This document shows positions 2,108 to 52,912 of a stretch of 64,000 nt of DNA, piece after piece. The first letter of the stretch is position 1. Each line of letters starts with the position of its first letter. Location: assembly GCA_964384025.1 (NCBI GenBank), contig CAYLJJ010000001.1:103601-167600 (forward strand), in the 5' to 3' direction. The DNA is from an uncultured Nannocystaceae bacterium. GTDB lineage: Bacteria > Myxococcota_A > Bradymonadia > UBA7976 > UBA1532. The notes under the pieces were generated by a model. That model was not told the origin of the DNA and did no database searches. It saw only the letters and a list, made by a program, of their open reading frames with translations. The position numbers and the translations under genes are program-made.

Positions 2108-3835
2108 ATGCTTCGATTGGTGATAGAGGATGATGAAGGCAAGACGACCGTTGTGCCCCTCATTCGTGATGAGATCACCATCGGTCGCAAAGATGGAAAC
2201 ACGATCCGCCTGACGGAACGCAATGTCTCTCGCCGCCACGCTCGACTCTTCCGCACCGGGGATAACGGGAATTTTACTGTTTTCTTAGAGGATTTAGATA
2301 GTTATAACGGCGTTCATCTCAATGGGGATCATGTCCAGGGTAAGTGTACAGTCCAACCAGGCGATCTGATCCAGATAGGGGATTACTCCCTGGCGCTGAG
2401 GGTGGATCAGTCCAACCTCAGGGATGCTCAAACCCAGGTTGAAGCTCAAGCTCCTCCGGGAATCGGAGAGGTTGAGCTGCTCCCCCTTGATGAACAAGCA
2501 CGGCTTGTCGTTGTCTCCAGCAACTTGGCTGGGACAACCTTCTTTGTTGATCGTCCTGAGGTGATCATTGGTCGTATAGATGAGAACGATCTGGTGGTCA
2601 ATCACCGCTCTATCTCCAGAAATCACGCCAAGATCATCGTCCGAGAAGGGGCCTTCACCATTGTAGATCTGGCCTCCTCCAACGGAGTCCAAGTCAACGG
2701 CGACAACTATGGGACCGCCTCTCTGATCAATGGAGATATCGTCGAGTTGGGTCAGGTCAAGATGCGATACTGCGCGCCTGGCGATGACTATACCTTCACT
2801 CGAGCTGATATTGAGGATGTGGAGTTGGATGGAGGACCCAGCACTGCCAAGCTGGTTCTGATCGCTCTGATTCTCGTCGCTGTCGCGGTGGTGGCTTTTC
2901 TGGGCGTACGCAAATGGAACCGCTCCTCCTCACCCGGCCCCAGTCCTCAAATTCAGGTGCCCAAACAGCCCAAAGCCCAAAGCGATTTTGACAGCAAAGT
3001 TCTATTGGATGAGGGACAGGAGCATCTAAAAGCCCTGCGTTGGAGAGAGGCGGAGCGAGCCTTTGAACGTATCATTCAAACTGAGCCTCAACATGAAGAG
3101 GCGCTGCGTCTCGATAAAATCGCTCGTCAAGAGAACAGCAACCAAGAGCGCCTCAGCAAACTCCGAAAAGAGGTGGAGGCGCAGCAATGGAGTGAAGCAT
3201 ACTTCCTCTTTACTGAGTTTGCTCGAGACAGCGTCTACTTCTCTGAGGTCTCGGAGATGCGCTCAGAGATCGAAGAGGGCTTCGCTCAGAGTGAACTGGA
3301 GCGGGGTCGGGATCTGATCACATATCAGGATCTAGAGGGAGCGGGTAATCTTCAGCTCTCTCTGGCTCAAAAACCCTTCGCTCAAAAACAGGCCAAGCTC
3401 CTCAATGAGGAGATCAAGACCGCTGCTCAAGCACAACTCAAAACCAACAAGCTTGTTCGCAGATCTCGATCAATTCCAAAAGCCTCTCGCAGGCGTCCTG
3501 CACCCAAGCCCGATCTAGAGCCAGAGCCTCCCTCTGATCCTGAGCATCCTGCCGTCGATGAAGAAGAGGAGTATGACAAAGTGATGGATCAGGCGATGTC
3601 CCTCTTTATCCAAGGCAAACGCAATCAAGCCGCCGAGTTCTTTGAGCGGGCCCAGCGCCTCAAGCCGGGGGCAAAAGAAGCCCACGCTCGTCTCTGTGCC
3701 ATCTATCCCACCATGGGCCGTCTTAAGCGTGCTCTCTTTCACTGTAAGAGAAATCTCAAGATTGAGAACGATCCCAGTCACCGAAAAAACCTCAAACGGA
3801 TCATTGAGGGTTTGGAGCGTGAGCTGGATCTCTAG
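2108..3835 (+). CDS. FHA domain protein with two FHA domains, one TM helix and a C-terminal TPR-like region
   Basis: Two FHA cores: ITIGRKDGNTIRLTERNVSRRHARLFR..YNGVHLNG and VIIGRIDENDLVVNHRSISRNHAKIIV..SSNGVQVNG. TM helix AKLVLIALILVAVAVVAFLGV. ATG at 2108. Confidence 0.8.
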   Translation: MLRLVIEDDEGKTTVVPLIRDEITIGRKDGNTIRLTERNVSRRHARLFRTGDNGNFTVFLEDLDSYNGVHLNGDHVQGKCTVQPGDLIQIGDYSLALRVDQSNLRDAQTQVEAQAPPGIGEVELLPLDEQARLVVVSSNLAGTTFFVDRPEVIIGRIDENDLVVNHRSISRNHAKIIVREGAFTIVDLASSNGVQVNGDNYGTASLINGDIVELGQVKMRYCAPGDDYTFTRADIEDVELDGGPSTAKLVLIALILVAVAVVAFLGVRKWNRSSSPGPSPQIQVPKQPKAQSDFDSKVLLDEGQEHLKALRWREAERAFERIIQTEPQHEEALRLDKIARQENSNQERLSKLRKEVEAQQWSEAYFLFTEFARDSVYFSEVSEMRSEIEEGFAQSELERGRDLITYQDLEGAGNLQLSLAQKPFAQKQAKLLNEEIKTAAQAQLKTNKLVRRSRSIPKASRRRPAPKPDLEPEPPSDPEHPAVDEEEEYDKVMDQAMSLFIQGKRNQAAEFFERAQRLKPGAKEAHARLCAIYPTMGRLKRALFHCKRNLKIENDPSHRKNLKRIIEGLERELDL

Positions 3836-3849: not shown

Positions 3850-5913
3850 TTAGAGATCCTCTTCAAGAGGTTTCCAACACAGACCCAAGATCAGACTGAG
3901 AGCAGGGCTCTGAGCGCTGACTCCAAAGAGAGCTCCTGTTGTCAACTCAAACCCAGAGGCCATCCATGCCAAGCTGGGACCCAAGCTGATGAGACGGATC
4001 CTCTCAGTCTGTTCCTCTCCAAAGGCGGTGTCAGCTTCAATCCCAAGAGAGAGCGCTCGCCAGAGATTGAACTCAAGACCGTAGCCTCCTGACCAGAGGG
4101 TGATGCTCTCATCCTCTAGACCCCTGATGTAGCCTTGGCGGAGCCGTAACGCAAAGCGATCTTGGCGTAGAGATCCCTCCAAACTGGGGAGGAAGCGCGC
4201 TCCGCTGTGATCATTGAGGGTCGGTGCCCAAACACTGAGATCAAGCGAGAGGCCCAAACCCCAGAAGGCGCTGCGCAGCAAACGCAGGCCTAAGCTTCCA
4301 AAGAGAGCACCCTCAGGCTCTTTGCTGACGAAGGGCTCTATACTGAAAGCATGAGCCGCTCTCACCATCAGGCGCTCATTAAAGAGGCTGAACCCTACAC
4401 CGAGGCTCGGCAGCGCAGGGCTGAAGTTTCCTGCGCTGTCCTCCGCGAGAGGAGCTTCTGCAACCCAGAGGTGGAGGCCCATACGCTGCTCATCTCTGAG
4501 GCTCAACCTACGCGGAGAGGGGATCGTGGCGAAGGCTGAAGAAAGAGCCCTGAGTGGATCGAGCTGTAGAGGTGTATACTCCTCTGTAAGCTTGGGAACT
4601 GCAGGCTCTTCAAGTTTACTCTCTTGCGGTTGGGAGCTTGGAGCGCTGGAACTCTGTGCAGGGAGCACCTCGATCTTGGGGCGCGCCAGGAGCTGTCTAC
4701 TTTTATCAACACAACTCAGCTTGAATTGGCCTGGCTCTTTGAATTGGAAGCGACGCGCCTTGGAGCCTAAATTTTGGGCACAGCTTACACCCTCGGGGGC
4801 TTCAATCCAGCTTCCCAGCGGCAACGGGCTGTTGCCCTTAATCTTGCTGCCGTCAGGAGCGGAGAACTCAAGACTCAGCAGCTTGATGGTTTTGATCGGG
4901 GAGGGTTTGCTCTCAAAGCCCTGCGCATCCAGAGCAGAGACTCGAGCATAATAGGTCCCCAGCGGCAAGCCACGGATTTCAAAGCGCTGCGTTGGAGCTG
5001 GGACCGTGGTGATCACCAGGATTTGGCTGCCATCGGGGGAACGAGCCAGCTCAACACGATAAGCCGAAGCCTTGGAGACGGGCTCCCAGCGCCCCCAGGC
5101 TTTGGGTTGCTCTCCAGACAGGTTCAAGAGCTGGCTGGGGCTGTCAAGAGACCAACTGGGGCTTGGAGGGAGAAGCTTTGGCTTACTGGGGCGCTGCCCC
5201 TGTTTGACTGAACTGCCCATACCGGCAACGACCTCGACTTTTCCTCTGCCCCGCTTGCCCTCCAGTTGGATCGGTTTTCCCGCATGGTTGGAGAGCCGCG
5301 TGGTGTTGACTTTGTCTACAGAGAGGAGGGCTTGCCCTTCGCCGAGATGAGTCTCAGCACTGGGAGAGGAGATCAGCAGCTTTGGTGTCCCCGCCAACTC
5401 TCCCAAGTGACTGCGCAAACTTCCTCGCGCCAGGGTGGCGCGGCTGCGCGTTCGAATTCGGCTGGTGGTAGGACCGAAGATGATCACGAGGGTGTCATGA
5501 TGCAGATGGATTTGAGCTTGGTTTTGAAAGGTGATCTCTGCAGTGCCGTTCTCTAGGGTGTTGATCCGCCAGCCTCGGTACAGCTCCTGATTGAGCTTCG
5601 CCTCCTGATAGACGGGGGCGTCTGTTGCCCGAGAGTTTACTTGGGGTTCCATCTCGGTGAGCTTGGCGTCTGGCTCAGGAGCAGGGAGCTGGAGACGCGA
5701 GCCCGGCTTGAGCTTGTGGGGCAGCTTAAAGCCAAGCTGGGGATTGTGGATATGTATCTTGTCCCAGGCCTTGGGATCTCCAAAACGCTCCTCTGCGATC
5801 TTGGAGCAGGTGTCTCCCGGTTTGACAATATATTCAAACAGTTTTGGTTTGGATTGGGCCTGTGTAGTGAGCAGGAACAGCAAGCTCAAGCTGAGTATCC
5901 CAGGGTAATTCAT
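3850..5913 (-). CDS. secreted LysM domain protein with FecR-like and Ig/FN3-like regions
   Basis: Signal peptide MNYPGILSLSLLFLLTTQAQS. LysM motif YIVKPGDTCSKIAEERFGDPKAWDKIHIHNPQ. ATGA overlap with the upstream Ser/Thr kinase gene (5910-5913). Confidence 0.7.
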   Translation of the reverse strand: MNYPGILSLSLLFLLTTQAQSKPKLFEYIVKPGDTCSKIAEERFGDPKAWDKIHIHNPQLGFKLPHKLKPGSRLQLPAPEPDAKLTEMEPQVNSRATDAPVYQEAKLNQELYRGWRINTLENGTAEITFQNQAQIHLHHDTLVIIFGPTTSRIRTRSRATLARGSLRSHLGELAGTPKLLISSPSAETHLGEGQALLSVDKVNTTRLSNHAGKPIQLEGKRGRGKVEVVAGMGSSVKQGQRPSKPKLLPPSPSWSLDSPSQLLNLSGEQPKAWGRWEPVSKASAYRVELARSPDGSQILVITTVPAPTQRFEIRGLPLGTYYARVSALDAQGFESKPSPIKTIKLLSLEFSAPDGSKIKGNSPLPLGSWIEAPEGVSCAQNLGSKARRFQFKEPGQFKLSCVDKSRQLLARPKIEVLPAQSSSAPSSQPQESKLEEPAVPKLTEEYTPLQLDPLRALSSAFATIPSPRRLSLRDEQRMGLHLWVAEAPLAEDSAGNFSPALPSLGVGFSLFNERLMVRAAHAFSIEPFVSKEPEGALFGSLGLRLLRSAFWGLGLSLDLSVWAPTLNDHSGARFLPSLEGSLRQDRFALRLRQGYIRGLEDESITLWSGGYGLEFNLWRALSLGIEADTAFGEEQTERIRLISLGPSLAWMASGFELTTGALFGVSAQSPALSLILGLCWKPLEEDL

Positions 5914-7190
5914 GAGCCTCCCCGGCGTTGTGCACGTCGAATGGTGCGTCGGCTGGCGCGAAGTAGATCCTCCAGCTTTAACGGCAGAGGCAGAACCTCG
6001 GCGATCCCAGCCCGGAGCAGCTCTGCGATGAGCTGAACATCCCCAGGCTTGATCGCCGCGATAACAGGGAGTCCGCTCTTCAAGCCTTGCTCTAAGAGCT
6101 CCTCCTGAGCGACCAGCACCGCTTGAGCTTCGCCGATCCCCTCTTCTAAAGGTTCAACGCTGATCCCGTTGCTACGTAACCCTGTAGACAGAGCTGCTTC
6201 CAGCTCACCTAGGAGGGCCAGGCGCAGCTGTCCTGGGGCCGGCTTAGGTTTGAGCAACTTATGAAACCCATGCTTGCTGGCGGTAAGCATCTGGGTTTCA
6301 CGACCAAGCTTCTGACCGCGCTCACACTCTCCCGCCTTCTCTATTTGCAGTTGAACCAACACAGCGCGAACATCGCTGGCGCTGGGACGCTGAGGAGCTG
6401 CTTTACGCAACATCCGCATGACAAGATCCTCCAGCGCGGAGGGCAGCTCTGCGCCTCTTTCGCTGGGAAGGGGGGGGACGAGACCCACATGCTTGCTGGC
6501 GATCTGAAAAATCGAACCTTCAAAGGGAGGAGCACCACAGAGCATCTCATAAAAAACACAGCCTAGAGAATAGAGATCGCTGGCGGTGGAGATCTGCATA
6601 TCTCCATAGAGCTGCTCAGGTGACATATAGGCGGGGGAGCCTATTATGCGCCCCTCGGTGGTCATCCGCCCTAAGACCTGGTGGTCGATGATATGAGCTA
6701 AGCCAAAGTCCAGGATCATCGGCTGCTCTTCACCATTTTGGCTTCGCTCTACGATGATATTCTCAGGTTTAAGATCTCGATGAATGATCCTCTGCTTATG
6801 AGCAGCGACGAGGGCATCTGCAAGTTGCCAACCCAGACGAATCATACGAGGCACATAGAGACCTCTTTCACGCTGGATGACCGATCCCAACTCCTCTCCT
6901 TTGAGGAGCGGCATAGCCATATAACTCAAGCCCCTATCACGACCAAAATCGTAGATCTCCACAGCGTTGGGGTGGCGAAAGAGGGCCGCGACCTGCGCCT
7001 CTCGCATAAAGCGCTCTTCAGCCTTTTTGCTCCCCACCACATGAGGCAAGAGGACCTTGAGGGCGATCTCACGACCGAGGACCTCATGTTGACAGCGGAA
7101 AACCGCGCCCATACCACCGCGACCGATCTCCTCGACCACCAAGTAGCGCTTCGCGATAATCATTCCCGGCTTTAGGAGTACCTCAGTCAC
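5910..7190 (-). CDS. Ser/Thr protein kinase with an uncharacterised C-terminal domain
   Basis: Hanks kinase motifs [31 protein letters not shown] and SPEQ. GTG start at 7190 forms a GTGA overlap with the cyclase stop. Confidence 0.85.
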   Translation of the reverse strand: MTEVLLKPGMIIAKRYLVVEEIGRGGMGAVFRCQHEVLGREIALKVLLPHVVGSKKAEERFMREAQVAALFRHPNAVEIYDFGRDRGLSYMAMPLLKGEELGSVIQRERGLYVPRMIRLGWQLADALVAAHKQRIIHRDLKPENIIVERSQNGEEQPMILDFGLAHIIDHQVLGRMTTEGRIIGSPAYMSPEQLYGDMQISTASDLYSLGCVFYEMLCGAPPFEGSIFQIASKHVGLVPPLPSERGAELPSALEDLVMRMLRKAAPQRPSASDVRAVLVQLQIEKAGECERGQKLGRETQMLTASKHGFHKLLKPKPAPGQLRLALLGELEAALSTGLRSNGISVEPLEEGIGEAQAVLVAQEELLEQGLKSGLPVIAAIKPGDVQLIAELLRAGIAEVLPLPLKLEDLLRASRRTIRRAQRRGGS

Positions 7191-9043
7191 AGCTTGACCT
7201 CATAAAGTCGCAGCTGCTCAGCACGACCGGCCAGTTCTCGCAACCCAAGATCTTGATACTCAAAGTCATCCCCAGCCGCTTGCTTGGTGGTTTCAGAGAT
7301 CAGGATCTGTTGGGGGCGGGCGATCATCTCTAGACGAGAGGCGACGTTGACGACATCACCAATCGCTGTGTATTCCATACGAGCCTCTGAGCCGACATTG
7401 CCAACGATCGCCTCACCGGAGTTGACCCCGACAGCCAACTGTAACTCCACTCCAAAGCGTGCTCGCCAACCTACGTTGCCGATCTCAAGCCAACGCATGA
7501 TATCTTCAGCCGCCTGGAGCGCTCGATAGGCATGATCCGCTTGAGGTTCAGGCGCTCCCCAAATCGCCATCACACAGTCCCCTAAGAACTTATCCACGGT
7601 TCCCCCGTGCCGAAAAATGATCTCGGTCAAAATGGTGAAGAGTTCATTGAGAATACCGACGACCTCTTCAGGCGCCAGACGTTCGGTGAGTGGGGTAAAA
7701 CCAACAACGTCAGCAAAGAGCACAGAGATGGGCATACGACACCCCCCCAGCGCCATGTTCTGTTCTCGTCGCACCACTTTATCTACCAGATCAGCGTTCA
7801 GATAACGGCCCAGATCCTTGCGAATCTCCAGCTCTTCACGGATACGCAGCTCAGAATTTTGCAGATCGGCGGCGGCGGTGCTCATCGCTTCTCCAAGGAT
7901 GGCCAGCTCATCACGAGTGTTGATGGTGACGCGACGCTCAAAGCGACGCTCAGCCAGATCTCGAGCAAAATCAGCCAAGCTTTGGAGCGGCGCGGTGAGC
8001 CGTCGAGAGAAGAAGATCGCCAAGAACAGGGCCAAAAATGTGGCTAAGGTCAAGGCGAAGATCAGAGTAACGCGCATCACTCCAAGGGAGCCATAAGCCA
8101 CCTCTCTAGGCTGCTGCACCACCACCAATAGAGGCAAGCTGGGTAGACCCACCGCCGCCGCTACAAACTCTCCCCTTGGAGAGTCATAGAGCTTAGAGAT
8201 GGTCAGGCCCGCTTCTAGAGCCTCAGTGCTGATCCCCTCCATGAGATCTCCAAGAGGGGCGGGTTCAAGTAACTCTCTCTCAGCTCCAGGTACCTGAGCC
8301 AGCAGGCGCCCTTTGAGATCGACCACCATCAGAGGATCTGGGAGTCCCCGTAGATGAGCCCCACTCAGCTCCGCCAAGCGTACAGCCAGCGGAGCAAGAT
8401 CGACGGTGCTGGCGAGGAAACCGGTGAGCTTCTCCCCCACATACAGGGGTAGAAGAAGCTTGAAGCTGACTCGCGCTCCCTGAGCGATGGGGGGAAGGGT
8501 CAACATTCCCTTTTGAGCCTCCCTTAGCTCCTCAGCGCTGAGCTGCTCGTCAAACTCTCCCGCTCTGGGGGTGGCTTGCTCCTGAGGGAGGATCTGATCG
8601 ATGAGGCCCCCTGTAGCGCTGTAGATCGCGACTCGTTGATCCCCCTGTCCTGAAACTAGGGCAAGGGCGACGCCCAGCCGCAACTCCTCGGGCTGCCCAA
8701 CATCTGTCAACGCAGCGGCGATGCCTTGGAGCGTCGTGCGGCAGCGCTCCACCTCAAACTCAGCTGCTTGAGCCAGATCAGAGGCCAACATGATGTGAAA
8801 CTCCTTGATTCCACTCTCTACGGCCTTAGCATTGATGTCCATAAGGAGCCAGCCCACAGAGAGAAGGGGGATGATGGCGAGGAAGCTTGCCATCAACATC
8901 AGCTTAAGTCGCAGCGGGACGTTTGCGGCTCTCTGTTCTCTGGGATCTTCAGCTTCCACCACGCTCCTCCGGACTGATTTCTCGCGCAAACTAACTCGTA
9001 AGACAGCAAGATGGGAGTGGGTGGGACAGGACAGGGGCAGCAT
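7187..9043 (-). CDS. class III adenylate/guanylate cyclase with an N-terminal two-TM sensor and HAMP-like linker
   Basis: C-terminal cyclase motifs VLFADVVGFTPLTE, GDCVMAIWGAPE and GVNSGEAIVGNVGS. Two hydrophobic helices flank a ~280-aa predicted periplasmic domain. The track start is an ATG at 9043; internal Met codons at 8899 and 8893, immediately before TM1, are alternative starts. Confidence 0.8.
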   Translation of the reverse strand: MLPLSCPTHSHLAVLRVSLREKSVRRSVVEAEDPREQRAANVPLRLKLMLMASFLAIIPLLSVGWLLMDINAKAVESGIKEFHIMLASDLAQAAEFEVERCRTTLQGIAAALTDVGQPEELRLGVALALVSGQGDQRVAIYSATGGLIDQILPQEQATPRAGEFDEQLSAEELREAQKGMLTLPPIAQGARVSFKLLLPLYVGEKLTGFLASTVDLAPLAVRLAELSGAHLRGLPDPLMVVDLKGRLLAQVPGAERELLEPAPLGDLMEGISTEALEAGLTISKLYDSPRGEFVAAAVGLPSLPLLVVVQQPREVAYGSLGVMRVTLIFALTLATFLALFLAIFFSRRLTAPLQSLADFARDLAERRFERRVTINTRDELAILGEAMSTAAADLQNSELRIREELEIRKDLGRYLNADLVDKVVRREQNMALGGCRMPISVLFADVVGFTPLTERLAPEEVVGILNELFTILTEIIFRHGGTVDKFLGDCVMAIWGAPEPQADHAYRALQAAEDIMRWLEIGNVGWRARFGVELQLAVGVNSGEAIVGNVGSEARMEYTAIGDVVNVASRLEMIARPQQILISETTKQAAGDDFEYQDLGLRELAGRAEQLRLYEVKL

Positions 9044-9270
9044 CTGTCCAGATCCTGCTCATCTTTGATGCTCACTTTTGCTTGAAAGAGGGACTAAGTT
9101 GTGCTTGGAGGTGGCGGGTGACTCAGCTTTTAGGGCTTGGAGAATCGTTGTTTTTGCTCGATATTGGAGTCTCATTCTAGGCCCTGAAATGTTCAGAGCC
9201 ATAGCTTGTTTTGAAACAGAGCTTCAAACCAAGTACAAGCAATCTCCTCAATCGACGAAAGGGAGGCATC

Positions 9271-11085
9271 TTGGGACGCCTGTTTGCGATCAGCCTGATC
9301 CTGCTCCAGGGCTGGGCTTGGGCTGAAGAGAGCTACGATATAGATGTCCAGAATTTTCGCCCCGCGATGGACTCCAAGGGCTTTATCAGCCTGGATCGCT
9401 CCAAAGCCTTGGGGACTCTGGAGCCCAGCATCGGCCTCTACCTCAATTATGCGTTCAAACCCCTCCGACAGAAGATCGACGGAGAGCAGCGAGAACTGCT
9501 GGAGTCTTATGGAACGGGTGACTTTGTGCTGGCTCTGGGCTTTTTTAACCTCTTTGAGGTGGGGGCAGCTCTCCCCATCGTCATCATTCGAGGGGATGGA
9601 GATGGTCCTGGTCGGGAGGATCAGATCGCGGGGGATGGTTTTGGAGATATGCGCCTTAACTTAAAGCTTCGCATCTTGGATCGAGAAGCTTATCCGGTGG
9701 GCTTAGCTCTGGTTCCCAGCCTGCTTCTCCCGACAGGTGAGGCGGGGATCTTCGCCTCTCATGGAAAGATGAGCATTCTCCCTAAGTTGGTCATCGACTG
9801 GGATCTGGGCTCCCGCGTGGGGATGGCCCTGAACCTGGGTGCTCGTCTCCGAGAGAAGCGCAGCTTGGAGAGATCGGTCAGCTTTGAAGATGAGAATGGG
9901 CAGCTTCACACTTTGGCACGAGAAGATCCCATCATCTTGGGCAATGAGCTGCTCTTTGGCTTTGGTCTGGGGGTTCAGGTGTTTAAGGAGCGCTTGGAGT
10001 TTATTCTAGAGAGTTTTGGCTCCTCTCCTTTGGAGGGGGGTGCTCAAAGAGCCAACCCCTTGGAGGTCCTGGCAGCCTTTCGTTTCTTCCTCTCTGGAAA
10101 CTCCTACCTCTCTTTGGGCGCCAGCCATGGCCTGATGGCTGCTTATGGAGATCCAGATCTTCGGCTCTTCGCGGGGATCCTCTTTGAGCCCTCCACAGGT
10201 GATCGTGATGGGGATGGCCTACCCGATGACATCGACAGCTGCCCTGATGATCCTGAGGATAAGGATCTCTTTGAAGATCAGGACGGCTGTCCAGATCTCG
10301 ACAACGATAAAGATGGCATTTTAGATATCAATGATCTCTGCCCCAACGATCCTGAAGATTTCAATCGTTTTGAAGATCATGATGGCTGCCCCGATGACAC
10401 CCGAGATCGAGATGGAGATGGGGTGGTCGATTCCAAAGATCTCTGCCCTGACGAGCCTGAAGATCAAGATAACTTCCAGGATGAAGATGGCTGCCCTGAT
10501 CTTGACAACGATGGGGATGGCATCCCGGATCGACATGATGACTGCCCTGATCAAGCTGAAGATCCAGATGGCTTTAAAGATGAGGATGGCTGCCCTGAGC
10601 TTGACAATGATGGGGATGGCATCCTGGATCGCAGGGATCGCTGTCCCAATAAGCCAGAGAACTTCAACGGAATTGAGGATGAGGATGGTTGCCCTGAGGC
10701 TCCTAAGAAGATCGTGATTACGGGGGGTAAGATCCGAGCGTTGGAGAAGATCTACTTTGAGACCAGCAAAGCGGTCATCAAGAGTGAGAGCTATGAAATC
10801 CTCAGCCAAGTGGCTGAGACGCTCCAGGCAAACCCACAGATCAGCAAGGTCGAGATCCAAGGGCATACAGACAGTCGGGGAAAGGCCAGCTACAACCTGA
10901 GGCTCTCAGAACGTAGGGCCGCTGCAGTGCGCACACACCTCATCGAGCAGGGTGTTGAGGGGGCTCGCCTCGTGGCCCGGGGCTATGGAGAGGAGGAGCC
11001 TATCGATCCCAGTGAGAATGTTCAGGCTTACAGCAAAAATCGTCGTGTGGAGTTCGTCATTCTAGAGGAGGGTGGGAGCCCCTGA
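9271..11085 (+). CDS. OmpA family outer-membrane protein with thrombospondin type 3 (Ca-binding) repeats
   Basis: About 8 repeats of the form DxDxDGxxDxxDxCPxxxED (e.g. DRDGDGLPDDIDSCPDDPEDKD). C-terminal OmpA domain with TDSRG..YNLRLSERRA..NRRVEFVI. I start at TTG 9271 because GGGAGG lies 4 nt upstream and gives the signal peptide MGRLFAISLILLQGWAWA. The track ORF begins at TTG 9211. Confidence 0.8.
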   Translation: MGRLFAISLILLQGWAWAEESYDIDVQNFRPAMDSKGFISLDRSKALGTLEPSIGLYLNYAFKPLRQKIDGEQRELLESYGTGDFVLALGFFNLFEVGAALPIVIIRGDGDGPGREDQIAGDGFGDMRLNLKLRILDREAYPVGLALVPSLLLPTGEAGIFASHGKMSILPKLVIDWDLGSRVGMALNLGARLREKRSLERSVSFEDENGQLHTLAREDPIILGNELLFGFGLGVQVFKERLEFILESFGSSPLEGGAQRANPLEVLAAFRFFLSGNSYLSLGASHGLMAAYGDPDLRLFAGILFEPSTGDRDGDGLPDDIDSCPDDPEDKDLFEDQDGCPDLDNDKDGILDINDLCPNDPEDFNRFEDHDGCPDDTRDRDGDGVVDSKDLCPDEPEDQDNFQDEDGCPDLDNDGDGIPDRHDDCPDQAEDPDGFKDEDGCPELDNDGDGILDRRDRCPNKPENFNGIEDEDGCPEAPKKIVITGGKIRALEKIYFETSKAVIKSESYEILSQVAETLQANPQISKVEIQGHTDSRGKASYNLRLSERRAAAVRTHLIEQGVEGARLVARGYGEEEPIDPSENVQAYSKNRRVEFVILEEGGSP

Positions 11086-11936: not shown

Positions 11937-12413
11937 AACTTCAGCCTCTTCACAAAGATCATCATCCACCCAAGGATCTCCCGATTCATCCAATTCCCCC
12001 TCTTGGATCCCCAAGCTTTGGAGGAGGCGATCAGCATCAAAGGCCTCCAGTTCACAGCCCTCATCCTCCTCAAGATTGGCGCCCGTGCTGCGGACGCGAT
12101 ACCAACCAGGCTCTAGGCGCTCCAACAGGAAGGGCATCTCCCAGCGATCCAGGGCAGGATCGCGTCCGCTGCGGTTGGAGAGGTTCTCGCGGATAAACTC
12201 AGTGAAGCCCTCAGGATCCCGAGGAGAGGGAGGATCGCTGCTCTCCTCCAGGGCTCGGCTGATGAGCTGTAGCTCCTGTTGGGTAAAGAGGGCCCGAGCC
12301 CCGTTGACGATGATCCCTAAAGCTCGTTTTCCGATACGGGCGCTCCAAAAGAGACCGATGAGGAGCAGGAGCAGAGGGAGTGCTCGACGAAAGAGAGAGA
12401 ACAGTGCTCTCAC
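11922..12413 (-). CDS. hypothetical membrane-anchored acidic protein
   Basis: The track ORF runs to 12587. A GTG at 12413 (residue V59) forms a GTGA overlap with the stop of the upstream CNBD gene, and the product then begins VRALFSLFRRALPLLLLLIGLFW (a TM helix). The upstream 58 codons overlap the neighbouring gene. Confidence 0.45.
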   Translation of the reverse strand: MRALFSLFRRALPLLLLLIGLFWSARIGKRALGIIVNGARALFTQQELQLISRALEESSDPPSPRDPEGFTEFIRENLSNRSGRDPALDRWEMPFLLERLEPGWYRVRSTGANLEEDEGCELEAFDADRLLQSLGIQEGELDESGDPWVDDDLCEEAEVSGRF

Positions 12414-14428
12414 AGCGCTTCCAGTCGCGCCGCACAGATGCGATCTAGGCGCAGAAGGCTCTCCATATCCTCTACCAAGATCTCTCTCCAGGCTTCTGCA
12501 GGGATCCGGTGCAGGAGCAGCGCCTCTACCGCCCGCACAGTCGCCGTACGACAACCCCCTTTTAGGGCCACCACCTCCCCAAACCAATCACCGGGACCCA
12601 GCTCGGCGACGCTGTAACAGCTCCCTCCCTCTTCCTTCTCTATCCGTAGTCGCCCCACCTCGTTGAGATAGACCCCATCTTCTTCCTCTTCGCCCTGCTC
12701 TATGACCGCGACTCCAGGAGGAACCTCTAGGATAGAGCAGCGCGCCAGGAGCGCGCTGAGGCGCCCAGGTGAAGCAGCGGTGAGCCCAGGCAGGCGCCTC
12801 AGCATCGAGACCGCACGGATGGTATCGACGATCTCTTCTCCAGCCTGGATCCCTGCCTTAAAGTCCTCCTGAGAGATGCTCAAGACCAGCGCCGACTCCA
12901 TGGCGCGTACGGTAGCGTTGCGCTGCCCAGAGGAGACTAGGGCGATCTCTCCAAAGAAGGAGTGTGCTTCTAGCTCAGCGACTCCATGAATCAGGCCGCT
13001 CTCCTCTTCCCATTCTACCCGTGCACGACCTTCGGCAAGGAAGCAGAGGCGATCACCAGGATCCCCCTGTCTGAGGATCAGCTCCCCCTCCTGATAGGGC
13101 TCTCGCTTAAGGATCTCCGCCAGGGCTTGGCCTTGAGCCAAGGGTCTTAGATATTCGATCGCCTCAGCCGCTCGACGAAAAGCCCTCAACTCTTCAACCC
13201 GCGCGATCTGCCGAATCCAACGGGGCTTGGGCTCTAGGAGCTGAACAAGGATGACAAAGATGAGACCCACAAGGGAGGCGCTGAGAACGACCACGAGTAG
13301 AAAGAGGAGGAGACTGATCCCCAGGAGGCTCCAAGGGCGCTCCCCTTGCACCAGGAGCTGGGCCACCATACGAAGCACGGTAGGAAGGTATTGCTCTCCC
13401 AGTAAGCTTAGGAGCAGCAAGCCATGCAGAAGCCAACTGGAGACCAGGATGAGATAACGCCACTCTCCTCGGGTCATTCCTTGGCTCCGCCTTAGGTTGC
13501 GGCCCACTTGGCGGATAAGGAAACGTAGAGTTCTGCGCCTGAGTTTGGGGATACCGGTTAAGATCCCGGCGATATGCCAAGCATCTGTTTTTAGATAGGG
13601 GGCTAGATCCAGCAGAAGGAGCAGCAGCACGACCCCGGTAAAGAGCGGCGCCTCCAAGAACCGACCAAAAGCGAAGAGAAAACAGAGGCTGGCGAGTCCT
13701 CCCAGCGCCAGCTTGAGGCGTTGTTGGGCTGAGGCGGCGCGTCTGCTTGAGAGATCAAAGGCTAGATAGACACCCCAGGGGCGCAAACGTAGAAAGGCCC
13801 GAGGTACTGGCAGCTCAAAGCTTCTGAGCATCCAAGCTTTAAAGAGGCTTCTGAAGCTGAAGAGCATGCTTGGGAAGAGGATAAGGGCGAAGAAGAGAGC
13901 CAGAGGGGAGTTAAGCGCAGGGATCGGGTTCCAACTCTGAGGGCCTCCTAAGAGGCCGTAGAGCAGCGCCAGCAGCGCCAGAAGGAAGCTGAAGCTCCAG
14001 AAGTGCTGGGGGAGGAGTTTTCCAGGTACGGAGAGGATTCTCAAGGCTGGAAGAGGGAGTTGGCCTCGGATGCGGAGGCTGGGGGGCCCAAAGATGGGCG
14101 CATCTACACCCTCCAAGAGGCCTCGCTGATAGAGCCTGCGCAGGAGCCCTAAGATCTTCAAGGGTTGTAACCTGGGTTTGAGTTCCAGGCCCGCTCTGAG
14201 GATCATATCTAGGCTTCTGCCATCCAAAAATGGGAGGATCTGCTCCTCATCTGGGCTGAGGTCGAGAGCTCCCTGGGAACCAATCACTCTCCCCGCCTCT
14301 AAGCGCCCTAGAAATTTAGGTCTCTGGATCTGCACTCCATCTCCTCTTCCAGAGGGCTGACATCCCCTTGGGTTTATGGACTGTGCTTCTTCTGCCATGA
14401 GCTTGAAGAGACAACAGATGGCTGTCAA
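12410..14428 (-). CDS. polytopic membrane protein with two C-terminal cyclic-nucleotide-binding (CAP-type) domains
   Basis: Multiple hydrophobic helices in the central region. Two CNBDs in the C-terminal third: FGEIALVSSGQRNATVRA and FGEVVALKGGCRTATVRAVE. Alternative start at Met11 (14398). Confidence 0.7.
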   Translation of the reverse strand: MTAICCLFKLMAEEAQSINPRGCQPSGRGDGVQIQRPKFLGRLEAGRVIGSQGALDLSPDEEQILPFLDGRSLDMILRAGLELKPRLQPLKILGLLRRLYQRGLLEGVDAPIFGPPSLRIRGQLPLPALRILSVPGKLLPQHFWSFSFLLALLALLYGLLGGPQSWNPIPALNSPLALFFALILFPSMLFSFRSLFKAWMLRSFELPVPRAFLRLRPWGVYLAFDLSSRRAASAQQRLKLALGGLASLCFLFAFGRFLEAPLFTGVVLLLLLLDLAPYLKTDAWHIAGILTGIPKLRRRTLRFLIRQVGRNLRRSQGMTRGEWRYLILVSSWLLHGLLLLSLLGEQYLPTVLRMVAQLLVQGERPWSLLGISLLLFLLVVVLSASLVGLIFVILVQLLEPKPRWIRQIARVEELRAFRRAAEAIEYLRPLAQGQALAEILKREPYQEGELILRQGDPGDRLCFLAEGRARVEWEEESGLIHGVAELEAHSFFGEIALVSSGQRNATVRAMESALVLSISQEDFKAGIQAGEEIVDTIRAVSMLRRLPGLTAASPGRLSALLARCSILEVPPGVAVIEQGEEEEDGVYLNEVGRLRIEKEEGGSCYSVAELGPGDWFGEVVALKGGCRTATVRAVEALLLHRIPAEAWREILVEDMESLLRLDRICAARLEAL

Positions 14429-23411: not shown

Positions 23412-24320
23412 ATGCCGCGGCTTTGGATCTTGGAGGCGACTTTGAGGGGACTCCTGCTATCGCTTGGCTTTCTATTGCTGCCCCTCCTGGTGCAGGCCGA
23501 AGGAGAGAAGAGCACCGCTGTTCAAGCCTACAAAGCGGGGAGAGAACACTTTAAGGGGAAGCGTTTTGCTGACGCGATCCTTGAATTCAATAAAGCCTAC
23601 CGCCTCGATCCCAACCCTGTGTTGGTTTTTAATATGGCTCGTAGCTTTGAAGAGCTTAAAGAATACCGCTCCGCCATCGAATATTATCGTAAATATTTAG
23701 AGATGTCGCCAAAGGCGAAAGATCGAATTCAGGTTGAAGAATCCCTACGGACTCTAGAGCTGCTCTCCTCCAGAGAGGTTCATAGAGTACACCTTCAGAT
23801 CACATCTACTCCTGAAGGCGCTCAAGTTTTTGTAGATGGACAGGCCCGAGGACTCACGCCATTTCGTGGTGAAGTGACTCCAGGCAAACACTTTATCATG
23901 GTGGAGATGGAAGGTTATAGCCGACAGGTTGAGGAGCTTCTCTTTAAGAATAATGAACTGAAACATCACGTTCAACTGATCTCTATCGAAGCTGCTCCTG
24001 AGGCAAAAACGAAGGAGTCGAGCCAAGTGGGAGCTTGGACCCTCTTAGGGCTCAGCGCAGCCCTCTTGGTGGGCAGCGCCGTGTCGGGTTTTGCGGCCCT
24101 TGATCGACATCAGAGCCTTAATGATCTAGATGATGATCCCAGCAGAGGCGATGCCGCCGAATATGATTCTCTTAGATCTACTGGTCGCGATTTGAGCTAC
24201 CTGAGCGATGGTCTTCTCTTAGGAGGTGTCGCCAGCGGGATCACCGGAGCGATCTTTCTCTTTGGAGCTGAAGAGGAGACTGCCAGCTTCAGGCAGGGGA
24301 AAGAGCGATGGACGCGATGA
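23412..24320 (+). CDS. secreted TPR plus PEGA domain protein with a C-terminal TM anchor
   Basis: Signal peptide, then TPR-like AYKAGREHFKGKRFADAILEFNKAYRLDPNP. PEGA-like VHLQITSTPEGAQVFVDGQARGLTPFRGEVTPGKHFIMVEMEGY. TM helix WTLLGLSAALLVGSAVSGFAAL. Confidence 0.65.
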   Translation: MPRLWILEATLRGLLLSLGFLLLPLLVQAEGEKSTAVQAYKAGREHFKGKRFADAILEFNKAYRLDPNPVLVFNMARSFEELKEYRSAIEYYRKYLEMSPKAKDRIQVEESLRTLELLSSREVHRVHLQITSTPEGAQVFVDGQARGLTPFRGEVTPGKHFIMVEMEGYSRQVEELLFKNNELKHHVQLISIEAAPEAKTKESSQVGAWTLLGLSAALLVGSAVSGFAALDRHQSLNDLDDDPSRGDAAEYDSLRSTGRDLSYLSDGLLLGGVASGITGAIFLFGAEEETASFRQGKERWTR

Positions 24321-26122
24321 GCGAGAGTTTCAATAACTCCATGACCGAGATGAGCCTTGATGGGGGTCGCTATGAGATCCAGACGCTCATCGGTGAGGGA
24401 GGGATGGGGCGTGTCTATCGCGCTTTACAGACCTCCATGAATCGCCTCGTGGCCATCAAGGTTCTACGAGCCTCGGTCAAAGAGGATGAGAAGCTTTTGC
24501 TCCGTTTTGGGCAGGAGATGAAGAGCCTCTCTCGTCTACAACACCCCAACGTCTTGACCATCCATGACTTTGGACAAGAGGGAAGCTCCCCCTATATTGT
24601 CATGGAGCTGTTGGGAGGGCAGAGCCTCTCCAGCCTCATCGCAAAGACCGGAGCGCTCCCTGAAGCACGCGCGCTGCACATCATAGAGCATGTCTGTGGT
24701 GCTGTCTCTGAGGCCCATAAATTTGGGATCATCCACCGAGATCTCAAGCCAGAGAATATCCAGATCGCGCGGGTGGGTAATGATCCTGACTTCGCGAAGG
24801 TCTTGGACTTTGGTATCGCCAAGATCGTCCAAGGAGATGAAGAGGCTGACGTAAATATCACCATCGCAGGGGCGATATTTGGGACCCCTCACTATATGAG
24901 CCCTGAGCAGGTTCATGGCGAGCGGGTAGATCATCGCACAGATATCTACGCCCTGGGCGTCATCCTCTGTGAGCTGCTCTTAGGGCGTCCCCCCTTTGAT
25001 GGCCCTACTGCAATGTCTGTAATGATGTCTCAGGCCTCCAAGCCGCCCCCTGATCTGCGCAAAGAGGCTCCTCATATCAGCGATTGCATCGTCGAACTGT
25101 TGGAGTCCTGCCTTTCAAAAAAGAGGGAAGAGCGCCCTCAATCTGTAGAGGAGATGATCAAAAAGCTTCGTGAGGCGATGTTTAAGCTGAGCGATTCGAC
25201 TGGAAATCTGATCCGCTTCATTCCCAGCGGGGAGCCGCTCGGTCCTGAGAGCAGCGCGCTCTCTCCCACACTACCTATGGAGGGAGATCAGGCCACAACA
25301 GATGAGCGTACTGCGCCCCCCAGAGCGACCCCTGAGCATGTTGGAGAGTTGGATTCCTCAGAAGATTCGGGTGAAGAGCAGAGAGGGGGCTCAAAACCCT
25401 GGCTCATCTCTCTCGTGCTCCTCTTGCTCCTCGGCGGTGGAGGCTTTTGGAGCTTTCAGAAGCTATACAGTGTGGAGGCTGAGGATCTGCTGATTCATCC
25501 GGTGGTGGAACCGGTTCGGATTCAGATGTCAGAAGCCCGCCACCTCATCGAGAGCACCCCCAGCAGAGCGAAGATCTTTGAGGGTGTTAGGTTCATCGCC
25601 CATACCCCCTATACGCTGATCTGGAACGATGGCAAAGATAGAACTGTGCAGCTCAAGTTGGAGGGACATATGGCTCACTCCATCACCCTCTCAGGCCGCG
25701 AAGAGAAGAAAACACAGCGGATCATCCTGATCCCTTCTGGGGCGTCAGCGTCTTCAGTCCCAGAGAAGGATCTCGGTCTCCCCGAGGCGCCCCTCAACGC
25801 TTGGCTGAAGATCAAGAGTGTTCCTTCGGGGGCTGAGGTTTGGGAGGGAAAGAAAAAGCTGGGGTCGACCCCCTTTGAGTGGAAGCCTTCTGTGGGGGGT
25901 GAGGTGAAGCTCTCCCTCAGCAAATGGGGCTATCAGAAACAGCCTTTGAGCATCCCCAGAGAGCCCGCAGGAGAGGAGCCGCTGGAGCTGAGCTTTAAGC
26001 TAAAGCGCAGAAAGCCAAAGCGGATCAAGAAGCCCACCGAGAAGCCCACCGAGAAGCCCACCGAGAAGAAGCAGGATGAGGTTCCTGAACCAGGGGAAGA
26101 AAACCCCTATATAAAACTCTGA
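24317..26122 (+). CDS. Ser/Thr protein kinase with a TM helix and two C-terminal PEGA domains
   Basis: Kinase motifs [28 protein letters not shown] helix [17 protein letters not shown]. Two PEGA-like blocks. [13 protein letters not shown] tail. The ATG at 24317 forms an ATGA overlap with the upstream stop; the track start is the ATG at 24308. Confidence 0.8.
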
Positions 26123-34938: not shown

Positions 34939-35005
34939 AGTGGGGAGAAGAGATTGCTTCCCCTCAAACCTCAAGCTACGGTCTCCCAATCCAAGGGAGA
35001 CTCGA

Positions 35006-37782: not shown

Positions 37783-38988
37783 GTGAACAAGGGGTGGTTG
37801 TGCCCAGCCGGTGAAATGCAGAGAGGGAAGCTCGCCCACATCTTAAGCAGCTGCTTTGCGGTCAGCGATGAGGAATCCCTGAACTGGTTTAAGAGGCTGG
37901 GAGAGGAGAATGTTCGAGTTGCCTTGCGTTTAGGTGAGGTGCAGGGGGGGATGGTATTGCTCCCGATGTTCCAGTACTTCGGTGGCAGACCCATCCCGAT
38001 GATGGGGGTGGCTGGGGTAGGAGTCTCTCCCTGTTATCGTCGCCAAGGTTTGGCTAAGAAGATGATGAAGCAGGCGTTGCTGGAGGCTCATGAGCGGGGC
38101 TTTGCTCTCTCCAGCCTCTACGCATCCAGCTTGGCCCTCTATCGCCACTCGGGCTATGAGCTGGCGGGGGGACGTTATAAGGTTCAGATCCCCGCTGAGT
38201 TGATCAAGGTCAAGGGTGACACAAGCAGGATCCAGGAGCTGGAAGAGGCGGATTTTGAAGCGGTCAAAGAGGTTCATCAGCGCTTCGCTGAAGCGGGCAA
38301 CGGCCAACTGGGACGCCCTGAGGCGCTCTGGCGTCGAGCACGCTTTGAGCGAGATGGGCGTCCCCTCTTTGGCTATGGCTATAGAACTGCGAAGGGTCTG
38401 GAGGGCTACCTCTATCTGCGAACGGAGCGTCAGCCCGGAGAGATGCACCATCTGCTCAAGCTGACCGACTTTATCGCTCTCAATGAAGCCGCAGCGCGAG
38501 GGCTCTGGGCCTTACTGAGCAACCACGCGACTACAGCATCGAATGTCCACTGTTTCCTCTCTCCCTGGAGCCTACCCCCTATGGTCTTAGAGGAGCGGCA
38601 AGCCCTCAAGACGCGGTTACTGGACACTTGGACTCTGCGGATCCTCAACATCCCTCTGGCCCTAGAATCACGCGGCTACCCCAAAGCGGTCTCTGGACGA
38701 GTCTCTCTTCGGATAAAAGACAAGCAGCTCTTCCAAAACAACCGCGCTTGGGTTTTGGATGTCGATAGGGGAGTTGCCCAGGTAAAGGTGGATGCTGAGC
38801 TTCCGTCACGCCTGAGATCATCCCATCCAGTCTTTTTGGGACCCAGGGGGCTCTCTGCCCTCTTTAGCGGTCATATGAACCCATTTCAGCTTAAAGCCCT
38901 GGGTTTTTTGGATGGAGAAGATCGAGACCTACTGACACTCCAGCTTCTCTTTGGAGGACCTCAACCCTGGATGATCGATATGTTTTGA
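37783..38988 (+). CDS. Eis-like GNAT acetyltransferase (tandem GNAT plus SCP2-like C-terminus)
   Basis: GNAT core GMVLLPMFQYFGGRPIPMMGVAGVGVSPCYRRQGLAKKMMKQALLEAHERGFALSSLYAS. ~400-aa length and C-terminal region are consistent with the Eis/SCP2 architecture. Confidence 0.6.
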   Translation: MNKGWLCPAGEMQRGKLAHILSSCFAVSDEESLNWFKRLGEENVRVALRLGEVQGGMVLLPMFQYFGGRPIPMMGVAGVGVSPCYRRQGLAKKMMKQALLEAHERGFALSSLYASSLALYRHSGYELAGGRYKVQIPAELIKVKGDTSRIQELEEADFEAVKEVHQRFAEAGNGQLGRPEALWRRARFERDGRPLFGYGYRTAKGLEGYLYLRTERQPGEMHHLLKLTDFIALNEAAARGLWALLSNHATTASNVHCFLSPWSLPPMVLEERQALKTRLLDTWTLRILNIPLALESRGYPKAVSGRVSLRIKDKQLFQNNRAWVLDVDRGVAQVKVDAELPSRLRSSHPVFLGPRGLSALFSGHMNPFQLKALGFLDGEDRDLLTLQLLFGGPQPWMIDMF

Positions 38989-39012
38989 ATAAAACTTAGA
39001 AATAACTCAAGA

Positions 39013-41544: not shown

Positions 41545-41625
41545 ATTTTATATACTCAGAAGCGCAGTTGATTGAATCCAGAGAGGGCAGAGTTTAGCAT
41601 CGGTGATCTTCGCTTCAGAGGGGAT

Positions 41626-51100: not shown

Positions 51101-51255
51101 TTCTGCTCCAGGGTGATCGGCCCCGAGTACTCCAGCTTAAGGGGGGTAGCTTCCTCCGCGATCCAAGCCCCAGCAAACTCCTCCTTGCTTAGGCCCTGGA
51201 GCCAGCCGGCTACAGAGTCAGTTGCCTGTGGAGGAGGAAGCTTGGGCAAGATCAC
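48121..51255 (-). CDS. cyaA: class I adenylate cyclase (CyaA family, enterobacterial type)
   Basis: Alignable by eye to E. coli CyaA. [21 protein letters not shown] matches [43 protein letters not shown] matches [20 protein letters not shown] (catalytic Asp pair). FFLVD matches FFLID. [21 protein letters not shown] matches [40 protein letters not shown] matches [42 protein letters not shown] matches CFYLKVCEKLSRER. GTG start forms a GTGA overlap with the fliW stop; the N-terminus is ~75 aa longer than E. coli, and Met68, Met75 and Met108 are possible alternative starts. Confidence 0.85.
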   Translation of the reverse strand: [1044 protein letters not shown]

Positions 51256-52894: not shown

Positions 52895-52912
52895 TTTATT
52901 TCCTCAGGGCCT

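Follow-up and report, generated by a model that had tools for sequence, protein, structure and literature searches.

This report concerns a three-gene operon in a 64,000-nucleotide (nt) stretch of DNA, hereafter the window, from an uncultured Nannocystaceae bacterium placed by GTDB in the class Bradymonadia of Myxococcota_A (assembly GCA_964384025.1, contig CAYLJJ010000001.1, positions 103,601 to 167,600 of the forward strand). The operon encodes a membrane adenylate cyclase, a Hanks-type serine/threonine (Ser/Thr) kinase and an envelope protein with LysM and FecR-like domains. Judged from sequence comparison of related loci, this triad is a vertically inherited three-gene signalling operon of Myxococcota, and is probably an uncharacterised system by which the cytoplasm is informed of the condition of the envelope. 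In the mechanism that we prefer, the envelope protein would act on the dCache sensor domain of the cyclase, and the kinase would be docked via a C-terminal pseudo-receiver domain; a probability of roughly 0.45 is assigned to this mechanism as a whole.

Organisation of the operon

All coordinates are positions within the window, and the cyclase, kinase and LysM/FecR genes all lie on the minus strand.

7187..9043, minus strand: receptor-type class IIIb adenylate cyclase, open reading frame (ORF) of 618 codons as listed (ORF list, Pfam, PDB matches)
5910..7190, minus strand: soluble Hanks Ser/Thr kinase with C-terminal pseudo-receiver, 426 amino acids
3850..5913, minus strand: predicted outer-membrane-anchored LysM/FecR protein, 687 amino acids
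9044..9210, no strand assigned: intergenic region shared with a divergent OmpA-family gene, between the cyclase and 9211-11085
3790..3809, minus strand: terminator-like hairpin and T-run, 41 nt past the last stop of the operon; weak call

The original prediction, made from the letters and an ORF list, had described these three ORFs as one translationally coupled unit with GTGA and ATGA overlaps. Its coordinates are exact, and the junction sequences bear out the overlaps and the coupling. The cyclase/kinase junction reads ...AAGCTGTGACTG..., where the kinase GTG (7190-7188) overlaps the cyclase TGA (7189-7187) and is preceded by GAGG 7 nt upstream. The kinase/third-gene junction reads ...GGGGAGGCTCATGAAT..., where the ATG (5913-5911), sitting behind GGGGAGG, overlaps the kinase TGA (5912-5910). 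Both junctions are 4-nt overlaps, each with a Shine-Dalgarno-like motif ahead.

The true cyclase start probably lies downstream of the listed position 9043, because the orthologues start approximately 10-20 residues ahead of a conserved PxRxKL-TM1 motif (TM1, first transmembrane segment), a GTG pair at 8962/8959 stands behind GGAGGAG, and the JGI gene call starts the protein at M49 (ATG 8899). Sequence comparison thus favours GTG 8962/8959 or ATG 8899 as the probable true start. The operon promoter probably lies in the intergenic region 9044..9210, on the minus strand of which a simple scan found no sigma-70-like match. The same type of scan found no minus-strand promoter-like or terminator-like sites within the operon above shuffled expectation. 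The hairpin and T-run at 3790..3809 is a weak call, as the regional number of such sites was not above shuffled expectation.

Conservation of the triad across Myxococcota

A word-index search returned only 25 homologues of the LysM/FecR protein. A profile search of the family was performed against 1.84 billion cluster representatives (50%-identity clusters); 946 representatives matched at E <= 1e-30, and at least 150 near-full-length representatives had E < 1e-126. A pattern scan over one genome per GTDB species gave 96 relatives, 80 of which were taken as loci. These loci were surveyed by tblastn with the domains of the window proteins, and the counts below cover the 67 loci having at least 3.6 kb upstream.

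The order cyclase, kinase, FecR on one strand was found in 58/67 loci. All three genes were present in 62/67, four of which were rearranged, with the FecR gene divergent from the cyclase and kinase genes (L043) or the order kinase, cyclase, FecR (L060, L075, L083). A second kinase was carried by L057, L058, L072 and L085. The three-gene linkage, whose absence from relatives would have told against the original prediction, is conserved, and the 80-locus survey led us to reject chance adjacency. Wherever the titles of the 80 loci name a lineage, it is Myxococcota or the older 'Deltaproteobacteria', and a few say only 'proteobacterium' or 'bacterium'; the Myxococcota lineages named are Polyangiales, Nannocystales, Haliangiales, Sandaracinaceae, Kofleriaceae, Labilithrix and Bradymonadia. 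In called-gene tables, the triad was found on independent contigs of Paraliomyxa miuraensis, Enhygromyxa salina, Archangium lansingense (class Myxococcia) and metagenomes, with a 4-nt overlap at one or both junctions. When the Archangium LysM/FecR protein was used as query, homologues were retrieved from Archangium, Vitiosangium, Cystobacter, Melittangium and Anaeromyxobacter(aceae), and no named Myxococcus match was returned by that search.

Sequence identity to the window domains points to the cyclase as the most conserved member of the triad; its HAMP and catalytic domains were 55-71% identical in loci where the periplasmic domain was also recognisably homologous. Mean distances were 0.44 for the cyclase HAMP and catalytic domains, 0.72 for the LysM-FecR head, 0.73 for the kinase catalytic domain, 1.19 for dCache, 1.33 for FN3-Ig, 1.46 for the pseudo-receiver and 2.01 for the barrel. 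The LysM-FecR head is about as conserved as the kinase catalytic domain, and more so than dCache or the barrel. The distance matrices of the domains were intercorrelated, mostly at r = 0.8-0.94 (0.55-0.69 for the pseudo-receiver of the kinase), which fits inheritance of the triad as a single unit. A mirror-tree test for specific contact between the head and dCache was set aside: all matrices correlate, and the test is uninformative beyond co-inheritance. All-versus-all clustering of flanking ORFs revealed no conserved fourth gene; only the three triad genes recur.

The genes could simply be co-regulated, sharing a promoter while acting in separate pathways; Myxococcota encode very many kinases and cyclases. 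Nothing specific favours this explanation beyond the commonness of such genes, which two further Hanks kinases and a second cyclase in the window illustrate. Gene order, strand and overlaps persist over Polyangia, Myxococcia and Bradymonadia-labelled genomes at 30-45% protein identity, and the flanking genes all differ while the triad persists. Co-regulation alone is therefore very improbable, and the survey supports the conclusion that the three genes behave as one functional unit.

Whether all three genes carry equal weight in that unit is a separate matter. The core could be the pair of kinase and LysM/FecR protein, with the kinase governing, for example, how a structural protein of the envelope is made, exported or turned over, and with a frequent but dispensable cyclase adding cyclic AMP (cAMP)-dependent modulation. 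Kinase/FecR pairs without an adjacent cyclase occur in L004/L005, L067, L068 and L070, the kinase and FecR genes overlap by 4 nt in most loci looked at, and the strongest of all distance correlations is that between the kinase and the LysM-FecR head (r = 0.94). However, the cyclase is present in 62/67 loci and is the most conserved component, a cyclase copy may lie elsewhere in the cyclase-less genomes, and a soluble kinase has no direct contact with a periplasmic or outer-membrane protein. This kinase-centred arrangement is considered unlikely, and a unit that includes the cyclase is preferred.

One marine contig (L091:1-7272) carries a permuted, possibly split module, in which a FecR protein gene (at least 519 amino acids) is followed by genes for an unannotated 1171-amino-acid protein, a cyclase and a kinase; this kinase (P0029, 44% identity) is one of the closest relatives of the window kinase.

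The dCache-HAMP adenylate cyclase

The cyclase comprises the following segments.

8846..8902, minus strand: TM1, residues 48-66 (Kyte-Doolittle scan)
8066..8845, minus strand: periplasmic dCache_1-type sensor domain, residues 67-326 (orthologue and profile matches)
8009..8065, minus strand: TM2, residues 327-345 (Kyte-Doolittle scan)
7862..8014, minus strand: HAMP domain, residues 344-394 (Pfam)
7214..7729, minus strand: class III cyclase catalytic domain, residues 439-610 (Pfam, alignments to Cya2 and CyaB)

Pfam Guanylate_cyc (PF00211) was matched at residues 439-610 (E 6.8e-28, 97.9 bits against a 21.9-bit cut-off) and HAMP at residues 344-394 (1e-06, 29.4 bits against a 25-bit cut-off). 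The HAMP-type membrane cyclase of the original prediction stands in both domains, and is refined in that its sensor is a dCache domain. The periplasmic domain of the window cyclase (approximately 260 residues) has no Pfam match by itself, and it is 25-40% identical to the orthologous domains. dCache_1 (PF02743) was matched by 19 of 21 aligned orthologous periplasmic domains (best 6.8e-14), and the family profile matches the solved dCache sensors 3lic, McpH and PctA/B/C. On the strength of these alignments, the sensor is assigned to dCache_1.

The catalytic domain matched 57 class III cyclases in the PDB, its best relatives being Synechocystis Cya2 (2w01) and P. aeruginosa CyaB (3r5g; third-best match, 2.5e-30). 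The membrane domain of CyaB is MASE2, not dCache-HAMP. The metal-binding Asp pair, D445 (FADVVGFT) and D489 (LGDCVM), aligns with its counterparts in Cya2 and CyaB. The adenine-specificity residue K485 aligns with the Glu of the guanylyl cyclase Cya2, the class IIIb residue T559 is aligned as in CyaB, and the Asn and Arg of the transition state are found as N566 and R570. None of these six residues varies in any of the 47 orthologues. Because this catalytic and adenine-specificity set is complete and invariant, the protein is predicted to be an active, ATP-specific class IIIb adenylate cyclase. A pseudo-cyclase lacking the Asp pair, which would have undone the original prediction, was rejected on the same residues, and on the question of substrate that had been raised there, the alignment shows a Lys/Thr pair of the adenine type. 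A conserved cytoplasmic Ser/Thr phosphorylation site in the cyclase was sought as well and rejected: the N-terminal tail is short and unconserved, and the invariant Ser/Thr residues (450, 470, 473, 482, 552 and 559) all lie within the catalytic domain, so that none can be assigned as a regulatory site.

The kinase and its pseudo-receiver domain

The kinase consists of two domains.

6369..7142, minus strand: protein kinase domain, residues 17-274 (Pfam, PDB matches)
5919..6227, minus strand: CheY-like pseudo-receiver domain, residues 322-424 (AlphaFold2 model, Foldseek)

Pfam Pkinase was matched at 4.3e-49, and the closest PDB structures are StkP, PknB, PknE and PknA. The G-loop, K45 (VAIK Lys), E64 (alphaC Glu), HRDLKPEN (D139), DFG (D161), activation-loop T177 and SPE are all present, and these motifs are invariant in 52-53 of 53 orthologues. 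A pseudo-kinase was rejected on this full and invariant set. No transmembrane segment was found in a Kyte-Doolittle scan, and the protein is predicted from its sequence to be a soluble, cytoplasmic and catalytically intact Hanks Ser/Thr kinase.

For the last 105 residues, an AlphaFold2 (AF2) model built from a 30-sequence alignment shows a (beta-alpha)5 CheY-like fold with a predicted local distance difference test (pLDDT) score of 88. The top 50 Foldseek matches of this domain are receiver domains, with template modelling scores of 0.5-0.65 (normalised by query), and the list is headed by the atypical receiver of CpaE2/TadZ. The position after beta1 is G328 (Gly in 51/53 orthologues), the Asp57 equivalent is A361 (mostly Ala/Gly, Asp in 3/53), and the position after beta5 is L402, which varies among the 53 orthologues without Lys among its common residues. 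The phospho-acceptor pocket is missing across the family, and the domain is therefore regarded as a pseudo-receiver, predicted by model and alignment not to be phosphorylatable on the canonical Asp. Its most plausible function is in docking or dimerisation.

The cyclase and the kinase also resemble components of anti-phage systems, and PADLOC matched them to PycC (2.6e-25) and PD-T4-6 (1.6e-77), respectively, so that a Pycsar-like cyclase joined to a PD-T4-6-like kinase could be envisaged. What these matches cover is no more than the folds common to class III cyclases and to Hanks kinases, and PADLOC returned nothing for the third protein. The cyclase carries the purine-type Lys/Thr pair, with adenine-type specificity, together with a periplasmic dCache-HAMP input, genes for a Pycsar effector (transmembrane or TIR) are absent, and the operon has been inherited vertically throughout the phylum, not in a patchy fashion. 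A defence role is extremely improbable, and a signalling role remains the preferred interpretation.

The predicted outer-membrane LysM/FecR protein

The third protein was modelled with AF2 from a 20-sequence alignment (mean pLDDT 73.6), and the following parts were delimited.

5854..5913, minus strand: predicted signal peptide, residues 1-20 (...LLTTQAQ/SKP), read from the sequence; no lipobox Cys
5683..5841, minus strand: LysM domain, residues 25-77 (Pfam, NCBIfam; model pLDDT 74-89)
5206..5568, minus strand: FecR-like beta domain, residues ~116-236 (weak in Pfam; Foldseek match to PupR)
4861..5133, minus strand: FN3-like seven-strand domain, residues 261-351 (AF2 pLDDT 85-97)
4663..4809, minus strand: small Ig-like domain, residues 369-417, with invariant Cys pair C378/C401 (alignment, AF2 model)
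4480..4653, minus strand: disordered Pro/Ser/Glu-rich linker, residues 421-478 (pLDDT <50)
3874..4479, minus strand: predicted C-terminal 12-stranded outer-membrane beta-barrel, residues 479-680 (AF2, pLDDT mostly 74-91)

The hydrophobic N-termini of the homologues align with the predicted signal peptide, apart from which a Kyte-Doolittle scan found no transmembrane helix. LysM in the window protein reached E 4.3e-4 and 20.6 bits in Pfam, just below the 20.9-bit gathering threshold, and NCBIfam PRK11198 was matched at 7e-05; Pfam matched LysM in 14 of 20 homologues. The FecR match of the window copy was weak (0.088), whereas FecR was found in 19/20 homologues (best 8e-08), and the FecR-like part of the model matched the C-terminal cell-surface signalling domain of PupR (6ovk_R, template modelling score 0.51). 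In the homologues, the weak LysM and FecR matches hold at family level, thereby bringing all five domain calls of the original prediction (Guanylate_cyc, HAMP, Pkinase, LysM and FecR) into agreement with the annotation.

The FN3-like domain has a conserved YRVE...G.YY.RVS..D..FES motif and a Foldseek match to contactin FN3. Most homologues have an additional Ig-like domain at the position of the linker (window gap at alignment columns 500-620). The barrel matched KdgM best (4fqe, template modelling score 0.79, root-mean-square deviation 2.9), followed by FapF, OmpG and the intimin barrel, and some homologues match Pfam OMP_b-brl. The homologues end in ...R(V/L)xF(E/N), and the window copy has a 7-residue tail past the last strand. 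These predictions indicate an exported protein anchored in the outer membrane by the modelled barrel. The original prediction of a secreted LysM/FecR protein therefore stands as to export and domains and gives way as to free secretion. In even-stranded barrels, both termini are on the periplasmic side; the N-terminal domains of the third protein are thus placed in the periplasm by default.

The opposite topology was also considered, in which the barrel, like that of an autotransporter, exports the LysM-FecR-FN3-Ig part as a passenger to the cell surface. Such a sensor or adhesin would bind foreign peptidoglycan or polysaccharide on contact with prey or kin, and the cyclase and kinase would respond indirectly. 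The layout is reminiscent of type Va autotransporters, with the passenger N-terminal, the 12-strand barrel C-terminal and a linker between them, and the intimin barrel is among the Foldseek matches. Myxobacteria are predators, and a LysM domain on the surface could recognise the wall of the prey. On the other hand, the best barrel matches are KdgM, FapF and OmpG rather than autotransporter translocators, and the segment ahead of strand 1 is disordered, with no alpha-helical pore-spanning linker predicted. FecR-type and LysM domains of Gram-negative bacteria are periplasmic as a rule, and a partner in the periplasm is the simpler reading of so close a coupling to an inner-membrane protein whose dCache domain is periplasmic. 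A surface-exposed passenger is considered quite unlikely, and the periplasmic placement of the head is retained.

Proposed mechanism

The structural and genomic statements on the triad are secure, and from them the mechanism of signalling is proposed as follows. From the LysM, FecR-like, barrel and dCache domains, we infer that the input is the state of the envelope. The predicted barrel would anchor the third-gene product in the outer membrane, and the FN3/Ig stalk and the flexible linker would extend into the periplasm with the LysM/FecR head, whose LysM domain would bind peptidoglycan there. The FecR-like domain may contact the dCache domain of the cyclase, comparable to the partner contacts of FecR-type domains in cell-surface signalling. 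Altered geometry or integrity of the outer membrane and peptidoglycan would then change HAMP signalling and hence cAMP synthesis by the catalytic dimer; alternatively, the stimulus could be a ligand entering via the barrel or bound at it. The kinase would be held at the cyclase by its pseudo-receiver, and would phosphorylate the cyclase or, once activated, other targets as a second output. FHA-domain proteins are candidates for such targets, among them the FHA-type sigma-54 activators located beside the triad in some genomes.

Several observations weigh against this mechanism. The FecR-like region of the window copy is poorly modelled (pLDDT <50 at residues 81-176) and below threshold in Pfam. 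LysM lies at the extreme N-terminus, which puts the head at the greatest distance from the barrel and makes its supposed position at the peptidoglycan layer tentative. No means of periplasmic sensing by the kinase itself can be recognised, and its link to FHA proteins is found at a minority of loci only. The cyclase may not be an obligatory partner of the kinase and FecR genes, because 5/67 loci keep those two genes without an adjacent cyclase. The correlated domain distances are expected from shared phylogeny alone and are no proof of physical contact.

Neighbouring genes

In 22 loci, a divergent gene upstream of the triad encodes a sigma-54 activator (enhancer-binding protein) with an N-terminal FHA or receiver domain. 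The FHA type was found beside the triad in approximately seven loci (L003, L045, L046, L053, L062, L065, L071), and the receiver type upstream of the cyclase in L008, L020, L022, L027, L044, L049, L069 and L081. A PAS-HisKA histidine kinase is also encoded upstream in approximately 10 loci. The following genes were annotated around the operon in the window.

2108..3835, plus strand: FHA-FHA-TPR protein, 575 amino acids, convergent with the operon; stops 14 bp apart
9211-11085, plus strand: OmpA-family protein with thrombospondin type 3 repeats, 624 amino acids (OmpA 4.8e-22)
12410-14428, minus strand: multi-pass membrane protein, 672 amino acids, ~6-8 transmembrane segments, two C-terminal cNMP_binding domains (2.9e-34)
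48121-51255, minus strand: class I adenylate cyclase, 1044 amino acids (Adenyl_cycl_N 4.5e-49, Adenylate_cycl 4.5e-81)
48121-62173, minus strand: flagellar late-gene cluster
59329-60096, minus strand: FlgF
58527-59315, minus strand: FlgG
57601-58530, minus strand: FlgA
55883-57127, minus strand: FlgI
55116-55883, minus strand: FlgJ-like rod-binding protein with M23
52913-54286, minus strand: FlgK
52007-52894, minus strand: FlgL-like
51252-51722, minus strand: FliW

The FHA-FHA-TPR protein is a plausible phospho-Thr reader for the kinase, and its adjacency to the operon is specific to the window. The OmpA-family gene is divergent from the operon, with which it shares the 167-bp intergenic region. 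Clustering of flanks showed that the OmpA/thrombospondin type 3, FHA-TPR and cyclic-nucleotide-binding (CNBD) neighbours are not kept at other loci. The CNBD membrane protein is a possible cAMP receptor. The original prediction had seen in the triad, this protein and the class I cyclase an unusually dense cyclic nucleotide circuit. Both additional genes are indeed in the window; because neither recurs beside the triad at the other loci, their density represents co-location and not a demonstrated circuit.

A 4-nt overlap (51252-51255) couples translation of the class I cyclase to that of FliW at the end of the flagellar cluster, which is an unusual position for such a gene. The flagellar genes are themselves unusual here, as the signalling genes of this organism are closest to those of normally non-flagellate Myxococcota. 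Two more Hanks kinases are encoded in the window (24308-26122 and 34940-36814, both plus strand), one with a PEGA domain, which shows that such kinases are common in this genome. A low-GC patch at 38000-42000 (0.46-0.49 against approximately 0.56-0.59 elsewhere in the window) contains genes for an Eis-like GNAT/SCP2 acetyltransferase (37783-38988), a hybrid histidine kinase (39013-41544) and an MshEN-domain protein (41572-42921). A 1759-amino-acid protein with repeated MopE-type putative metal-binding motifs (2.8e-49) is encoded at 29595-34874 on the plus strand, and the stretch around it has a strongly positive GC skew (0.14-0.19).

Comparison with known systems

A literature search found no paper on the triad, none joining FecR, LysM and adenylate cyclase, and none joining Myxococcus, adenylyl cyclase and FecR. 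Proteins of COG4254 that combine LysM and FecR are encoded beside CHASE2 histidine kinases in Burkholderiales (the 'BiofilmReg' operon in Burkholderia) and as PA4035-like proteins in P. aeruginosa (PMC5192318). Both these systems and the triad pair an exported protein carrying N-terminal LysM and FecR domains with a membrane transducer having a large periplasmic sensor in one operon, and in both the function is uncharacterised. The window protein has the signal peptide-LysM-FecR order of the COG4254 type, a likeness of domain order. In the triad, however, the partner is a dCache-HAMP adenylate cyclase instead of a CHASE2 histidine kinase, a Hanks kinase with a pseudo-receiver is added, the LysM/FecR protein has FN3 and Ig domains as well as a predicted C-terminal outer-membrane barrel, and there is no response regulator or DUF4136 gene.

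A cluster in Campylobacterota encodes a CHASE2 adenylate cyclase, a cAMP phosphodiesterase, a FecR-domain protein of the outer membrane and a TPR protein (PMC9239204). It likewise couples a receptor-type class III cyclase to a FecR-domain protein described as outer-membrane, a likeness seen at the level of the FecR domain. The sensor is CHASE2 there and dCache in the triad, and the companions there are a phosphodiesterase and a TPR protein instead of a Ser/Thr kinase. That cluster belongs to another phylum, and horizontal spread was reported for it (PMC9239204).

In S. meliloti, the outer-membrane-associated protein NsrA is reported to be required for signalling to the CHASE2 cyclases CyaD1/CyaD2/CyaK (PMC7529298), and the FecR-domain envelope protein SMc02177 belongs to the same (Clr) regulon (PMC7529298, PMC5498481). 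This resembles the triad in that periplasm-sensing class III cyclases need an outer-membrane-associated protein. NsrA is unlinked and is not a FecR protein, SMc02177 is a target and not shown to be an input, the signal is plant-derived, and no kinase takes part, whereas the triad has one. In P. aeruginosa, CyaB is reported to be activated by the LysM protein FimV (FimV-FimL-CyaB; bioRxiv 10.1101/116954), and a class IIIb cyclase depends there, too, on a peptidoglycan-binding LysM protein. There, FimV is an inner-membrane hub acting via its cytoplasmic region, the genes do not form one operon, and there is neither a FecR domain nor a barrel. CyaA and CyaB of M. xanthus, class III cyclases of the membrane whose sensor regions are N-terminal, have been implicated in the response to osmotic and envelope stress (work of 2002 and 2005, cited in PMC7643160).

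The FecA-FecR-FecI and PupB-PupR systems also place a FecR-type periplasmic domain between the outer membrane and an inner-membrane signalling protein. The FecR-like protein of the window lacks the anti-sigma N-domain and the transmembrane helix, and no extracytoplasmic function (ECF) sigma factor or TonB-dependent transducer gene was found among the neighbours in the window or at the other loci inspected. A FecR anti-sigma system was rejected for these reasons, and the output of the triad would be cAMP and phosphorylation rather than sigma-factor release.

The pairing of FecR/LysM envelope proteins with periplasm-sensing transducers is thus already known, with CHASE2 kinases in Burkholderia and CHASE2 cyclases in Campylobacterota. 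The triad differs in its dCache sensor, in an obligatory Hanks kinase that ends in a pseudo-receiver, and in a LysM/FecR protein fused to FN3/Ig domains and a 12-strand barrel. The bolder claim that the triad constitutes a new form of trans-envelope ('cell-surface') signalling, in which an outer-membrane barrel-stalk-head protein is coupled to a dCache cyclase with a docked kinase, is offered tentatively and considered somewhat unlikely.

Biological significance

Accessory proteins with LysM and FecR domains occur beside periplasm-sensing transducers in many phyla, none with a demonstrated mechanism. The Myxococcota triad is an unusually informative test case, because its parts are all fixed in one tightly coupled operon. 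The combination of barrel, stalk, head, dCache cyclase and pseudo-receiver kinase points to a concrete route by which the outer membrane and cell wall could feed both a second-messenger and a phosphorylation output. In myxobacteria, the interplay of Ser/Thr kinases with cAMP has hardly been explored, and the operon is present in named, sequenced species of Archangium, Cystobacter, Melittangium, Paraliomyxa and Enhygromyxa, in which experiments look feasible. If the proposed mechanism is true, a single signal from the envelope would give rise to two responses in the cytoplasm, namely cAMP and Ser/Thr phosphorylation, instead of the release of an ECF sigma factor. The operon would then, because it spans the phylum, represent a core envelope-surveillance pathway of Myxococcota, thereby providing a first function for the widespread LysM and FecR accessory proteins.

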